This document shows, piece after piece, positions 23,601-29,019 of a DNA stretch of 64,000 nucleotides (position 1 is its first letter; each line of letters begins with the position of its first letter). Under the pieces are notes generated by a model that saw nothing but the letters and a program-made list of their open reading frames with translations, was not told where the DNA came from and searched no databases. The translations under genes and the position numbers were made by a program. Source of the DNA: Escherichia phage vb_EcoM_bov11CS3; the sequence record MT884009.2; one strand, given 5' to 3'.

Positions 23601-25679
23601 TTAAAAAGGCGTTTCATCATCCTCAAAACCAGGGACCGGGTCAGAGGATGGATCATCGTACTGGAGGTCTTCCTGCGTGTCAACAGGCTTAACAGTAGGA
23701 GTTACAACCTTATCAGCCACAACCTTGCCCATAGGTGTTTCTACAACTGCATGCTCCTGATCCTCAAACATAGCCTGAGGTCTCCAAACAACCTCCCCAC
23801 CTTCTCCGTCTGTAAACATTTGCATTTCTTTGTCCCAGTACCAATTACTGGCATCATGGAACTTACCTGTGTGCGGGTCCATAACCAAAGTGTCAGCAAT
23901 ACCTAAAGTTTTTGCTGGACGGTTTTTAAGACCTACCAGACGGACACGTCCACGAGAACGATCCACCATTTCTTCGGCCTCGACACCTATGACTACCCAA
24001 CTCAACTGTTCAAGCCCCGCCGATCCTCGCAAATTCTCTTTTCGCACAGGATACCAGAAAGGTAACGGGTTACCATCCTTGTCCTTAGGAGGCACAATCT
24101 CTGTACGTTTGAGGTGAGCGATCACCAAGATAAACACGTTAAACTGCTTACAAAACGCAGCCAGCTGAGTCATAGCCATGTCCAGTTCTTTTCGCTCATC
24201 CTTAACATTAAGCCCTGAAATTACCATGGACAGGTGATCCAGCACAATATAACGGCAATGGTACAGGCAAACCATTTGCTTAAGCTTGGTAATCAACTCG
24301 TCCACCGGAATAGATCCGAAATGTTTGAACACTTTGATTTTTCCAGCTTTTGCCCATGATTGGTGAATCTCTGCGTGTTCTTGATCAGTTAAAAACTGGC
24401 TAGGATCTTCAACAAACTCTTTAACATCAAACCCTAACTGGTTTGCATACAAGGAGTTAATTGCTTCCTCTGGGTCCTCCTCAAGATGGATCATACATAG
24501 ACGATCATCCTCTTCATAGTCATCAGCCTTCGGGCATGTCGGGTCCATTAGGTATCTTGCAATACAATGTTCCAGTTTTTTAGCTACAGTTGTTTTACCG
24601 CCCCCTGATGGCCCTGTAAGCATTACGAGTGTCCCTTTGTGCAAGCCTTTTAGCATTTTTTGCAGTTTTGGGAACTCTGCGCTGATATCTACCCCGTTGG
24701 AAGTCTTTTTCCGCAAAGACTCGATAGAGAAGTCTTCTAAGTCCGACACAGCATCAGGCACATATTTAACAGGATGCCGGAACATGTTGACAATATCTTC
24801 CAGCTTTTTAGCCTTCAGCATGTCTCGGATATCTTTTACACCGTCAGGGTCGTTTACTTCACCAGGGTATTCTACGTGGTAAACGTTATCAGCCATCAAA
24901 AATGCTGCGATATTGTGCGTGGCCTCAACACCTTTAATGACGTGTTTTTGCTTCTCTACCTCGTTAGCTGCATCGTTATCCATTGCCAGCACAACTGTTC
25001 CATAGCTACGGATAAACTTCTCATTGTTTGCAAAAGTATCTACTGCGTTTGCACATCCACAGTTAATTCCAACAAAAGGTAGGCAGGGTTTTCCTGCCAG
25101 ATCACCACCGTTGATAACTGCGTCGATCCCGTCCTGGACCTCTTTAGCCCACTGCTTCACCTTTGCCGGGGCTTTAGCGTTGGTGAGAATCCCTTTTACT
25201 TGTATCTGATATGCAGCCTGCCATGCTGCAATAACATCACCTTCTCCCTCACAAACGTTAATCTGCTTACGGTTGTTGGAAGATGCACACAGCTTTTGAC
25301 CAAACATCTGGGAGTTGGCCTTTACGATGCCAACAACGGAGAAATGGCCCCTTTGCTCTTTAGGAATAGTCCAGTCACGCTTTTTGAAACCAGACAGATT
25401 TCCGTAGCGGTCGTAATATGGGAAATATGTTGCAGTGACTGTCACACCGTCTTCTTGGGACAATGCTGATCGCACACCAAAATATTGTGCAGCCATCAGA
25501 CCGATATTTTGTTGTGGGACAGGGACAATTTTAGTATTTTCTAAAACAGTCTCTACAGTTTCAACTTCTTTTTCATCACGATAGTCTCGTTTCACACTTC
25601 CCCCACTTTTATACTTAGTTGCTTTCGGGTTTGGCTCACCGAAACGGTTGTATGCAGATGCCATAAATTTACTTCCCAT
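23601..25679 (-). CDS. Primase-helicase (T7 gp4-like; TOPRIM plus DnaB-type helicase), 692 aa
   Basis: TOPRIM-like VCEGEGD and AMDNDAAN; Walker A LTGPSGGGKTT; ATG with SD aaggag. Confidence 0.9.
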   Translation of the reverse strand: MGSKFMASAYNRFGEPNPKATKYKSGGSVKRDYRDEKEVETVETVLENTKIVPVPQQNIGLMAAQYFGVRSALSQEDGVTVTATYFPYYDRYGNLSGFKKRDWTIPKEQRGHFSVVGIVKANSQMFGQKLCASSNNRKQINVCEGEGDVIAAWQAAYQIQVKGILTNAKAPAKVKQWAKEVQDGIDAVINGGDLAGKPCLPFVGINCGCANAVDTFANNEKFIRSYGTVVLAMDNDAANEVEKQKHVIKGVEATHNIAAFLMADNVYHVEYPGEVNDPDGVKDIRDMLKAKKLEDIVNMFRHPVKYVPDAVSDLEDFSIESLRKKTSNGVDISAEFPKLQKMLKGLHKGTLVMLTGPSGGGKTTVAKKLEHCIARYLMDPTCPKADDYEEDDRLCMIHLEEDPEEAINSLYANQLGFDVKEFVEDPSQFLTDQEHAEIHQSWAKAGKIKVFKHFGSIPVDELITKLKQMVCLYHCRYIVLDHLSMVISGLNVKDERKELDMAMTQLAAFCKQFNVFILVIAHLKRTEIVPPKDKDGNPLPFWYPVRKENLRGSAGLEQLSWVVIGVEAEEMVDRSRGRVRLVGLKNRPAKTLGIADTLVMDPHTGKFHDASNWYWDKEMQMFTDGEGGEVVWRPQAMFEDQEHAVVETPMGKVVADKVVTPTVKPVDTQEDLQYDDPSSDPVPGFEDDETPF

Positions 25680-26433
25680 TAATTCTGCTCCTTACTACAG
25701 GCTCGTTTGCTAAGAATACGGCTTTTGCCCAGCCACGTGGTGTGAGGCTTCGAATCATCTTCGTTCTTGCACTCTTTCCACCCAGCTTGGCGTGTTGCAT
25801 GGAATACCCGCTAACCACGTCAACTATTTGCGGGACAGGTTTTGTGGCCGGGATTATAAATCCATTACCTATCCAGCCGCAAGTTATTTTTGGATAGGCA
25901 TCACGTGGAGCTATAAATTCAGGAAACCATGGGTTTACATCATCTTCCGGTAAATACCCGCCATAATCCGAAGGGTGAAAACGGTAATCAGGTTTGCGCC
26001 ACAGTGTGGACATAACACCCACAGGGTTCTCTACATGCCACGGGCAATCGTAAATCTCTCCCAGCTCTTCCGCAACCCGAGCATCCTTTACAGCATTAAT
26101 TTGGATCATGGGGTCCTTAGCCAGCTTTTTCTTAAAATGTGCAGCACCTGATACCGCTAAATGCGTGCACGGAGGAAATGCAAGAATAAAGTCTGGAGCC
26201 GGATACATGCAAAAAGTTTCCTGTGGGAACCACGGGTCAATCCAATAGTCCACATAGTGAATGTTGGGATGATCGGTGATCACCTCTGCATAACTGCCGT
26301 GATCAGCGCCTTCTGCATTAAAGCACAGGCACAGGTACCCAGCTTTTGCCCAGTCAATGACTGCACCACCAGACCCGTCAAATAGACTCCACACAACACC
26401 TTTGTGGTAGTGCTCTTTGTAGATAAATTTCAA
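25669..26433 (-). CDS. DNA cytosine-C5 methyltransferase-like protein (about 254 aa), probable TTG start
   Basis: Motif I LFDGSGG, motif IV-like FPPCTH (PCQ-like), motif VI-like VENPVG; TTG with SD aggaga; the track GTG lies inside the terminator stem. Confidence 0.5.
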   Translation of the reverse strand: MKFIYKEHYHKGVVWSLFDGSGGAVIDWAKAGYLCLCFNAEGADHGSYAEVITDHPNIHYVDYWIDPWFPQETFCMYPAPDFILAFPPCTHLAVSGAAHFKKKLAKDPMIQINAVKDARVAEELGEIYDCPWHVENPVGVMSTLWRKPDYRFHPSDYGGYLPEDDVNPWFPEFIAPRDAYPKITCGWIGNGFIIPATKPVPQIVDVVSGYSMQHAKLGGKSARTKMIRSLTPRGWAKAVFLANEPVVRSRINGK

Positions 26434-26451
26434 TTTGCTGTCTCCTAATGC

Positions 26452-26478
26452 AAAAAGCCCCACCCTTTCGGGCAGGGC
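26452..26478 (-). terminator. Rho-independent terminator with GAAA tetraloop (copy 2 of 2)
   Basis: Same hairpin as 15716-15745; 3-prime of gene 26485-26967. Confidence 0.65.
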
Positions 26479-26484
26479 CTAGTG

Positions 26485-26967
26485 TTAAACCCGGATACCT
26501 ATTGTATACTCGGTGGATACCAATGTCAAATCTAAATTTAAAATTTCTTGCATCTCATAATATGCGTCCAGGGTTAGATACATTTCCCCATCCTTTTCTG
26601 CATACTTGTCCAAGTGCTTAAGGCATTTCGGATAACTATCGAGTGCAGCTTTCAGACACTCAAATTCTGTGCTGTTAATGAATCCTTCCATCTTAGCTAC
26701 CCGTTCTGGAGTAACGATAGCACTGTAGTGAGATTTAGCTTCCTGAATGCAATGGGTCCAAGCATCAACTTTCTCTTCGAAAAGCCCGAAGAACTTCTTT
26801 TTGGTGAGCTTCAAATTCTTTAAGTGCTTAAGCACTCGGTTGCCGATCACAGCCACATCACGAAACTTAAGGATCACTTTGTCGATATCCTCGCGGCCTA
26901 TTTTCACAAAGCAAGCCTCGCACATTTCAGGAGTGGCATAGCCTACTTTCCACATAAAATCTGACAT
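26485..26967 (-). CDS. hypothetical protein (160 aa)
   Basis: ATG with SD aaggagag. Confidence 0.55.
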   Translation of the reverse strand: MSDFMWKVGYATPEMCEACFVKIGREDIDKVILKFRDVAVIGNRVLKHLKNLKLTKKKFFGLFEEKVDAWTHCIQEAKSHYSAIVTPERVAKMEGFINSTEFECLKAALDSYPKCLKHLDKYAEKDGEMYLTLDAYYEMQEILNLDLTLVSTEYTIGIRV

Positions 26968-26979
26968 AACACCCTCTCC

Positions 26980-27375
26980 TTATTCCTGAAAAGCAACGAT
27001 ATCATATGAACTTGCAGATGATCCTGGTGAAGAATGACTCCAGTCTAGGTCATCAGAGTAGTCAGCGTACTGTGCACCACTACGTAGTTTGTATTTTACC
27101 CACTTGCCTGGTGCAGGGTTTTCACCACCTTCCCATACTTCCCAGCCTTCTGGCAGGCCGTCCTGGGGGTAGTCATCCACCTCACTAATAATCTTAGGGT
27201 TTGGCACCAAGATCCCTGCAGGCTCTTCCTTCCGGATAAGTGTCCACACAGCGTAGGTGTCTGAGCAGGCGCATGATAGCAAAGTATATCCACTATTCAG
27301 AACTTCTGCAAGCTCTTTCTCAGCATCTTCCAACTTGGTTAAGTGGTATTGGACAATCTTCACATCTGTAATCAT
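26980..27375 (-). CDS. hypothetical protein (131 aa)
   Basis: ATG with SD gggagg. Confidence 0.55.
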   Translation of the reverse strand: MITDVKIVQYHLTKLEDAEKELAEVLNSGYTLLSCACSDTYAVWTLIRKEEPAGILVPNPKIISEVDDYPQDGLPEGWEVWEGGENPAPGKWVKYKLRSGAQYADYSDDLDWSHSSPGSSASSYDIVAFQE

Positions 27376-27719
27376 CAGAAACCTCCCACTTCTTCGGCAA
27401 ATGCAGCTGCTGTCGTCGCTGCATCAAGATAGGACTCTAGTTCACGGGCTGCACGTTTGTAAATTGAGTGGCGCATATCGTTTGGCAGTTTGTGGAAGTC
27501 CACCTCTTCACCGTTGTGGTAAACATGCACATCAGTGATCTGTCTAAATCCATAATAGTCAACATCAGAATCACGACACTCCGGGTCTGGCAACTGGACA
27601 ACTGCCTGAGCTTCCACAGTGAACATATCGTCAAGTTCGAAATCGATTTCAAAAGTGTATGGTTTATAACGTTTCATCATTTGATTGTACTCTTTATTGA
27701 TCAGACTTATCTTTCGCAA
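27375..27719 (-). CDS. hypothetical protein (114 aa by track; TTG start, alternative ATG at 27680)
   Basis: Track ORF; start uncertain. Confidence 0.45.
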   Translation of the reverse strand: MRKISLINKEYNQMMKRYKPYTFEIDFELDDMFTVEAQAVVQLPDPECRDSDVDYYGFRQITDVHVYHNGEEVDFHKLPNDMRHSIYKRAARELESYLDAATTAAAFAEEVGGF

Positions 27720-29019
27720 CTAAGGCCGGGGCAAGTTTGTAATAACGGAAGCCACCACCACCTTGCCAGTTTACAGACTTAGAAATACCACCTTGATCTT
27801 CGCCATCGATCACTTTTTCCAAGCGCGGAATAATATGGGTATGACAATGATCACCTAGCTCGATTGAGATCCAGCGTCTTTTCATCTTATGAGCTACAGC
27901 AGCAGTAGTTCCCGAACCACCGAATGAATCCAATACCAAATCGCCTTCTCGCGTACACATTTCGAAAATCCGCTTCAAAAGCGCTTCTGGTTTTTTCCCA
28001 TTTTTGAAACTAACGCCGCCTTCATTTGCTATTCCATTCCAACTAATGTCTGTCCAAACATCAGTTATTAGTTCCGCAGGTTGCATCTCACCGTCAATTT
28101 CCAAAAGCCTATTGGAGTAAAAGACCATTTGCCTACCATTTGCGATATAAAATCCTTCAACATCCTCATTTGGATGTACATAAACCTTATCCCTATCTTT
28201 CTTTGACTTCTCGATAGTTTCTTTTCTCTTTATTTTAGCACCACCACCAATTGCAACAGATTGAAATACACGTTCTGCATTATCAATTGCGAATTGTGCT
28301 AATTCATCATCGAATGTGTCAGGCAGTTTTTTCTTGGCTTCTTTTGCATCCTTATAGCCATTGGCCTTTGCAAACGCATCGGCAATACCGCACCACGTCC
28401 AATTTTTATAATGGTCATCCGGGTTTAATAGGTATTTGTTATATCCTGTATCGTACCCTTTAGGTATATAGATTTTGTTAAGCGGTTTCTGGGTGCGATC
28501 TTTTGCATATACAAGCAAAAAGTTTGCTGTGGAGAAAACTGTGGCTCCTGTTGCCTTAAATCCTGAAGGGGAATTTGTGGTCATCGATATGGTATTTAAC
28601 TGATTTGCACGACCAAAAATCTCGTCCATCAAAACTTTTAAATACGCCATTTCGCAATCATCTAAGTGAACGAATATTACCCCATCATCACTTAGAAGAT
28701 TACGAATTATTTCTAACCTATCCCTCATTAAGCCCAGCCAAATGGAATGCTCCAGGCTATCATCGTAGTGCTCAAAAGCCCTCCCGGTATTGAATGGCGG
28801 GTCTATGTAAACACACTTCACTTTGCCTGCATACTCTTGCTCTAGCGCCTTCAATGCTAATAAGTTATCTCCAAAAATCAGTTTATTATCAAAAATATCG
28901 TTTTCTGTCACTTTCTGGCTGCGGTAAGACTTGCTAGAATCTTCTAATAAAATGTGCGGCTCTAACTTTTTGCGCTCGTTTTTACCTATCCAGGTAAGTT
29001 CTAATTTGGTTTTGCTCAT
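27694..29019 (-). CDS. DNA methyltransferase, beta-class N6-adenine/N4-cytosine type (Mod-like), 441 aa
   Basis: Motif IV VYIDPPFNTG precedes motif I DSFGGSGTT; ATG with SD taaggagag. Confidence 0.85.
   Translation of the reverse strand: MSKTKLELTWIGKNERKKLEPHILLEDSSKSYRSQKVTENDIFDNKLIFGDNLLALKALEQEYAGKVKCVYIDPPFNTGRAFEHYDDSLEHSIWLGLMRDRLEIIRNLLSDDGVIFVHLDDCEMAYLKVLMDEIFGRANQLNTISMTTNSPSGFKATGATVFSTANFLLVYAKDRTQKPLNKIYIPKGYDTGYNKYLLNPDDHYKNWTWCGIADAFAKANGYKDAKEAKKKLPDTFDDELAQFAIDNAERVFQSVAIGGGAKIKRKETIEKSKKDRDKVYVHPNEDVEGFYIANGRQMVFYSNRLLEIDGEMQPAELITDVWTDISWNGIANEGGVSFKNGKKPEALLKRIFEMCTREGDLVLDSFGGSGTTAAVAHKMKRRWISIELGDHCHTHIIPRLEKVIDGEDQGGISKSVNWQGGGGFRYYKLAPALVAKDKSDQ

Follow-up and report, generated by a model that had tools for sequence, protein, structure and literature searches.

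What does the minus-strand open reading frame (ORF) at 25669-26433 encode in Escherichia phage vb_EcoM_bov11CS3 (MT884009.2), of which we analysed one stretch of 64,000 nucleotides (the window)? The phage is an rV5-like Vequintavirus, and two answers can be read from the records of its relatives: in vb_EcoM_bov22_2 (MT884010.2), where the region is 100% identical and has the same coordinates, 25669-26433 is labelled 'hypothetical protein', and in the BASEL phage WalterGehring (MZ501111.1) a 99%-identical gene, also at 25669-26433, is labelled 'Dcm-like C5 cytosine methyltransferase'. Our analysis comes down firmly on the side of the second label: the 254-a.a. protein is very probably a DNA cytosine-C5 methyltransferase that uses S-adenosylmethionine, an orphan enzyme carried by the phage and a member of the compact 'phage Dcm-like' family (PHROG 757). 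We infer the catalytic activity of the window protein itself, by analogy, and also its biological role. The gene is already known, being an ordinary member of a widespread and named family of phage methyltransferases.

The ORF is not a chance ORF, since 3,552 homologues were found at E<=1e-3 in a collection of 5.8 billion proteins (2,012 representatives at 50% clustering), with best non-self E-values of ~1e-146 to 1e-75. The protein matches PHROG 757 ('DNA methyltransferase') with E=4.7e-87, residues 10-261 of its longer 264-a.a. form being aligned to positions 3-226 of the 247 in the profile. Family members share the signature FPPCT[D/H], ENP, D-x-Y-x-K and [IL]RSxTPxG in a length of ~210-260 a.a. 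(the median is 234 a.a. among the representatives), and every element of the signature is present in the window protein. Three relatives of ~55% identity (P0054, P0068 and P0070) exceed the gathering score of PF00145, with 24.7-28.5 bits against 22, over motifs I-IV only.

The initial annotation, made from the DNA letters alone, had described, without naming a strand, a protein resembling C5-methyltransferases, with motifs I, IV and VI in the order expected of this enzyme class, and that description holds: LFDGSGG (residues 17-23), PPCTH (87-91) and ENP (135-137) follow one another as they should. It had also pointed to PCT in place of PCQ. The substitution is there, and it is usual within the family. 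According to the residues counted in 118 diverse family representatives (Table 1), PCT (with a motif IV consensus of PPCT[D/H]), ENP, the lysine that replaces the arginines of QxRxR, and IRSxTPxG are all family consensus and not peculiar to the window phage; C89, E135, N136, P137, K182 and R228 are each conserved in at least 92% of the representatives, and C89 is invariant in alignment A1. The residue after Lys182 is Ile183 in the window protein and Lys in most of its relatives. Canonical PF00145 enzymes (M.HhaI, M.HaeIII and E. coli Dcm) share with the window protein its fold and the succession of motifs I, IV and VI, but they are 320-480 a.a. long, contain a target-recognition domain of ~100 a.a. 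and read PCQ, ENV, QxRxR and GN, where the window protein has PCT, ENP, a motif VIII lysine and IRS. An hhalign alignment to M.HhaI, with weak statistics and reaching motifs I-IV only, places LFDGSGG...FPPCTHLAVSG over FAGLGG...GFPCQAFSISG; the counterpart of motif IV in DNMT3B is SPCNDLS. The C-terminal IRSLTPRG resembles both motif X of DNMT3A (GRSWSVPV, as seen in PDB chains) and the canonical motif IX (RxLTPRE), and because the profile search and hhalign reached motifs I-IV only, it is not assignable to either of them by sequence. As a side observation from the family alignment, FxGxG is replaced by LFD-[YHR]-[TS]-G (positions 18-22 of the window protein) in the majority of the distant members, which also carry an Asp at position 39, whereas the clade of enterobacterial phages that includes the window protein has the canonical FDGSG and an invariant Asn39, so the cofactor-binding motifs have diverged within the family.

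The predicted structure points the same way. The AlphaFold model (pLDDT 89) has the fold of a C5-methyltransferase catalytic domain, and its top structural matches are all cytosine-C5 methyltransferases, DNMT3A and DNMT3B first. The likeness to the DNMT3 catalytic domains is one of shape and of a few motifs: identity is 12-16% with a TM-score of ~0.5, the PCN-DL of DNMT3B motif IV resembles the PCT-[DH]-L of the family, and DNMT3A ends with GRSWSVPV and then a helix, much as the family ends with IRSLTP and then a helix (residues 233-251 of the window protein, 19 residues with pLDDT ~96). The DNMT3 domains differ in that they keep ENV and the RxR of motif VIII, are ~285 a.a. long and act on CpG as oligomers associated with DNMT3L or with themselves. 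In the model of the window protein a separate target-recognition domain is absent, because the motif VIII strand (184-189) is separated from the C-terminal helices by just ~38 residues (190-227), which have a lower pLDDT and for the most part no secondary structure; the short protein lacking an obvious recognition domain that had been proposed at the outset is thus borne out. The absence is common to the whole family. Strong conservation is seen in two loops, residues 153-183 (an insertion of 30 residues relative to HhaI) and 190-227, and these conserved sequences are probably the DNA-recognition elements. No conserved partner gene able to supply a recognition domain in trans was seen in the gene contexts compared, and a scan of the longer family members for fused recognition or DNA-binding domains showed an extra domain, an HNH, in just one of them.

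Functional evidence comes from a relative that has been studied experimentally. The 'Dcm-like' gene of phage KarlJaspers (MZ501090; bas06_0055), 711 bp long, encodes a protein of 236 a.a. that is 54% identical to the window protein over 235 residues (E=3e-86); K42 is a KarlJaspers strain, with a genome 95.4% identical to that of Bas06. All four K42 mutants that escaped retron Ec86 were hit in the 711-bp dcm gene, and expression of this gene was toxic only in cells with the retron (10.1101/2023.08.16.553469). Mass spectrometry coupled to liquid chromatography (LC-MS) showed that 5-methylcytosine (5mC) in the msDNA was raised by the wild-type K42 enzyme and not by its C82A/E128A/K175A/K176A mutant, K175 having been picked through superposition on DNMT3A, and defence was lost when CCTGG in the msDNA was mutated (10.1101/2023.08.16.553469). 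E. coli Dcm served as the analogy for assuming a CCWGG target, the experiments were done in MG1655, and the retron was silent in MG1655 without the phage enzyme (10.1101/2023.08.16.553469). The compact Dcm-like family is a known trigger of retron Ec86/Eco1, and rV5-like phages may therefore be sensed likewise.

The K42 and window proteins share FPPCT, ENP, DxYxK, KxGGKSxRTKMIRSLTPRG, the compact size and the lack of a target-recognition domain, with C82, E128, K175 and K176 of K42 aligned to C89, E135, K182 and I183. They come from different phages, a Drexlerviridae siphovirus (K42) and a Vequintavirinae myovirus, and the window protein has an additional N-terminal leader of 11 residues, an additional C-terminal tail of 10 residues and a His after PCT (Asp in K42). 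P0070 was considered as the K42 enzyme, given its matching residue numbering, and rejected, as tblastn led to a relative from a Salmonella phage.

Several observations weigh against the assignment. The Pfam scan of the window protein gave no PF00145 match even at E<=10, and the NCBIfam scan gave nothing relevant. The profile check suggested in the initial annotation is therefore split: PF00145 fails, but a methyltransferase family (PHROG 757) is matched and relatives pass PF00145. None of the sequence matches to solved methyltransferases reaches significance (E 0.2-1): a PDB search with the window protein alone gave insignificant matches and one with P0070 gave none, and the family profile hit DNMT3B and HaeIII exclusively, and weakly. 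The motif VIII strand reads DAYPKIT, with no Gln/Arg pattern of the QxRxR kind, and the canonical GN of motif X is not present in the window protein. Ile183 stands at the position of K42 K176, which belongs to the four residues exchanged in the K42 study. MG1655 carries a host dcm gene, a point that the K42 preprint does not take up, and the silence of the retron in this dcm+ strain until the phage enzyme is supplied agrees poorly with a specificity that is simply CCWGG/Dcm; as the strain is already dcm+, there may be a difference from Dcm in the site, the substrate form or just the expression level of the phage enzyme. Finally, modification, methylome or restriction data for rV5-like phage DNA were not found in the literature searched.

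Some of these points would also suit a catalytically dead remnant that only binds DNA or S-adenosylmethionine and might act as a regulator or host-defence decoy: motifs VIII and X depart from the canonical form, a target-recognition domain and a Pfam match are both lacking, and of the four residues exchanged in K42 one is an isoleucine here. We consider this very improbable, as the catalytic Cys, ENP, Lys182 and the FxGxG loop are retained and strongly conserved over hundreds of lineages, activity has been reported for a relative whose motifs are non-canonical in the same way, and the ranking of the fold matches also disfavours it. Even less probable is a DNA cytosine C5-carboxymethyltransferase resembling CmoX, which would use carboxy-S-adenosylmethionine (Cx-SAM; the product of E. 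coli CmoA) to make 5-carboxymethylcytosine. SpCmoX of Synechococcus phage S-B43 (PDB 8yf3) exemplifies a group of 333-372 a.a. with an SPPC motif and an Arg at the place of HhaI Asn304, usually encoded beside CmoA and/or an amide ligase. The arginine of the IRS motif (R228), a putative counterpart of N304/R350, does not imply the use of Cx-SAM, because Arg-Ser is found at the same place in DNMT3A, which is an S-adenosylmethionine enzyme and the best structural match. Moreover, the window protein reads FPPC and not SPPC, the Pfam search of the adjacent genes (three upstream and one downstream) found no CmoA or amide ligase domain (the three upstream neighbours match nothing in Pfam and the downstream one is the primase/helicase), and 5mC was the product seen by LC-MS for the 54%-identical relative. 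The least probable alternative, an RNA (tRNA) cytosine-C5 methyltransferase of DNMT2 type or another non-DNA methyltransferase with the C5 fold, is disfavoured by the fold-match ranking, the conservation of the catalytic residues and the reported activity of the relative.

For a DNA cytosine-C5 methyltransferase, a mechanism can be proposed by analogy with the canonical enzymes. Cys89 in FPPCT would attack a flipped-out cytosine at C6, with help at N3/N4 from Glu135 in ENP, and Lys182 would stand in for the arginine of motif VIII. The LFDGSGG loop and the C-terminal IRS-helix would hold the S-adenosylmethionine, the methyl group of which would pass to C5 and the enzyme would then be released, the DNA probably being recognized by the loops 153-183 and 190-227. 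Since the gene lies in the replication module and overlaps the start of the primase/helicase gene, its probable role is to mark phage DNA that has just been replicated, most plausibly as a means to weaken restriction by the host; activation of retron Ec86/Eco1, as seen for the relative, would be a side effect.

As to the target, CCWGG is just the proposal made for the K42 relative; the window contains 132 CCWGG sites, ~0.8 of the expectation, so that the site is not avoided, and this count says nothing decisive on specificity. A bolder proposal is that the family comprises the smallest known cytosine-C5 DNA methyltransferases and is not equivalent to Dcm (CCWGG), having a very short or relaxed specificity or a preference for single-stranded or hairpin DNA. 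We regard this as rather unlikely, albeit worth stating: it would explain how the K42 enzyme activates retron Ec86 in a Dcm+ host and, if true, would turn these proteins into anti-restriction tools of broad spectrum and into minimal methyltransferases of potential use. The gene itself carries little weight as a discovery, as near-identical genes are annotated and a family member has already been studied; the remaining interest lies in the target specificity of minimal methyltransferases that have no recognition domain.

The position of the start codon also had to be settled. The longest ORF in this frame begins with a GTG at 26461-26463 and would give 264 a.a.; we rejected this start, as it is inside a hairpin stem and without a ribosome-binding site. 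The only other in-frame candidate, a GTG at 26394, was rejected as well, having no ribosome-binding site and cutting off the first strand of the fold. The TTG at 26431-26433 (with a TAA stop at 25669-25671) is well supported by the sequences compared, because AGGAGA lies 7 nt upstream, the first GTG is in the hairpin, the second lacks a site, and two relatives start close by: L006 (80% protein identity) has a GTG start with AGGAGG at the codon homologous to the TTG (its first 11 codons show seven base differences, three out of seven synonymous), and L005 (79% protein identity) has GGAGG after the same hairpin and then an ATG a few codons further in. Both the TTG start with a good ribosome-binding site and the terminator hairpin just upstream, enclosing the GTG of the longer ORF, had been anticipated in the initial annotation, and both stand, the hairpin as a terminator-like one.

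The hairpin, read from 26480 to 26455, has a stem of 11 bp followed by a U-run; the 66-nt stretch that includes it (26425-26490) folds with -22.8 kcal/mol (z=-2.98). It is kept in L005, where bases of the 3' arm differ (T to C and C to T) and the stem remains paired (G-U to G-C and G-C to G-U). A near-consensus sigma-70 promoter-like site lies 5' of the hairpin, within the 3' end of the preceding ORF, and L005 has the same hexamers and spacing. The module of promoter, hairpin and ribosome-binding site is thus found in L005 (2899-2976), and it is absent from L006. A transcript from the promoter-like site would begin ~15-20 nt ahead of the hairpin and U-run, the promoter being upstream and not downstream of the hairpin. 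Judged from these elements, the promoter-hairpin module (window 26455-26529) could serve for attenuation or provide a 5' stem-loop with a stabilising effect.

Table 1. Features of the methyltransferase locus, with window coordinates and, where counted, residue conservation among the family representatives.
Feature	Coordinates	Strand	Evidence	Conserved residues
Compact cytosine-C5 DNA methyltransferase, predicted coding sequence	25669..26433	-	ORF list, GenBank records, PHROG 757, fold	
Motif I, residues 17-23, LFDGSGG (FxGxG; loop that binds S-adenosylmethionine)	26365..26385	-	alignment with the DNMT3B, HaeIII and HhaI motif I	
Motif IV, FPPCTHLAVSG, residues 86-96, catalytic Cys89, PCT for PCQ	26146..26178	-	translation, alignments	Cys89 110/118; Thr90 101/118
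Motif VI, ENP (variant of ENV), residues 135-137, Glu135	26023..26031	-	translation	Glu135 115/118; Asn136 109/118; Pro137 116/118
DAYPK, motif VIII-like, Lys182 at the place of canonical QxRxR	25888..25902	-	D178, Y180 and K182 >90% conserved	Asp178 108/118; Tyr180 113/118; Lys182 109/118
IRSLTPRG, C-terminal motif before the long terminal helix	25732..25755	-	conservation; motif IX/X assignment putative	Arg228 109/118; Pro232 108/118; Gly234 107/118
Ribosome-binding site AGGAGA, 7 nt 5' of TTG	26441..26446	-	direct sequence reading	
Terminator-like G+C-rich hairpin, then U-run; rejected GTG (26461-26463) in its 3' arm	26455..26480	-	terminator scan	
Predicted sigma-70 promoter-like site, TTGACA-17-TACAAT	26501..26529	-	promoter scan, 11/12 matches	
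Primase/helicase gene, ATG overlapping the methyltransferase stop by 11 nt (25669..25679)	23601-25679	-	matches DnaB_C and AAA_25	

The genomic context is that of a replication module, with genes for a DNA polymerase, the primase/helicase, an N6_N4 methyltransferase, a helicase and rIIA/B around the methyltransferase gene. Its 11-nt overlap with the primase/helicase gene suggests, as far as gene arrangement can tell, co-expression with the replication genes, and helicase genes adjoin the methyltransferase gene in other phage families too. Upstream, three successive small ORFs of 160, 131 and 101 a.a. (26485-27680, minus strand) separate the two methyltransferase genes; they have no Pfam match and are 'hypothetical' in every sister phage compared. 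The second methyltransferase gene (27694-29019, minus strand), four genes upstream of the C5-methyltransferase gene, encodes a 441-a.a. N6_N4_Mtase protein (PF01555, E=4e-42), labelled in sister phages as type III Mod-like or as N6-adenine methyltransferase; no restriction partner is evident near it.

Small genes resembling homing endonucleases (DUF723, or similar to T5orf172/GIY-YIG) were observed in relatives, at 3747-4264 in L005 and at 742-1248 and 3809-4543 in L001, inserted at the junction of the methyltransferase and primase/helicase genes or within or beside the DNA polymerase gene; a PIF1 helicase with an intein is also present in L005. In the window phage, the methyltransferase-primase/helicase junction is free of such insertions.

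An intact copy of the gene is present in 114 rV5-like records. Among 50,697 phage records, 1,503 contain the compact C5-methyltransferase family; they come chiefly from Escherichia, Klebsiella and Salmonella phages of several phage families, and the family members in them are often labelled cytosine methylase or Dcm. Pfam and NCBIfam miss the family, hence the label 'hypothetical' for the protein in the record of vb_EcoM_bov22_2, which could be re-annotated. In addition, 16 'Campylobacter phage' records (e.g. MG065655.1, 140 kb) are ~98% identical to the window over 25000-27500, and their host labels look doubtful.

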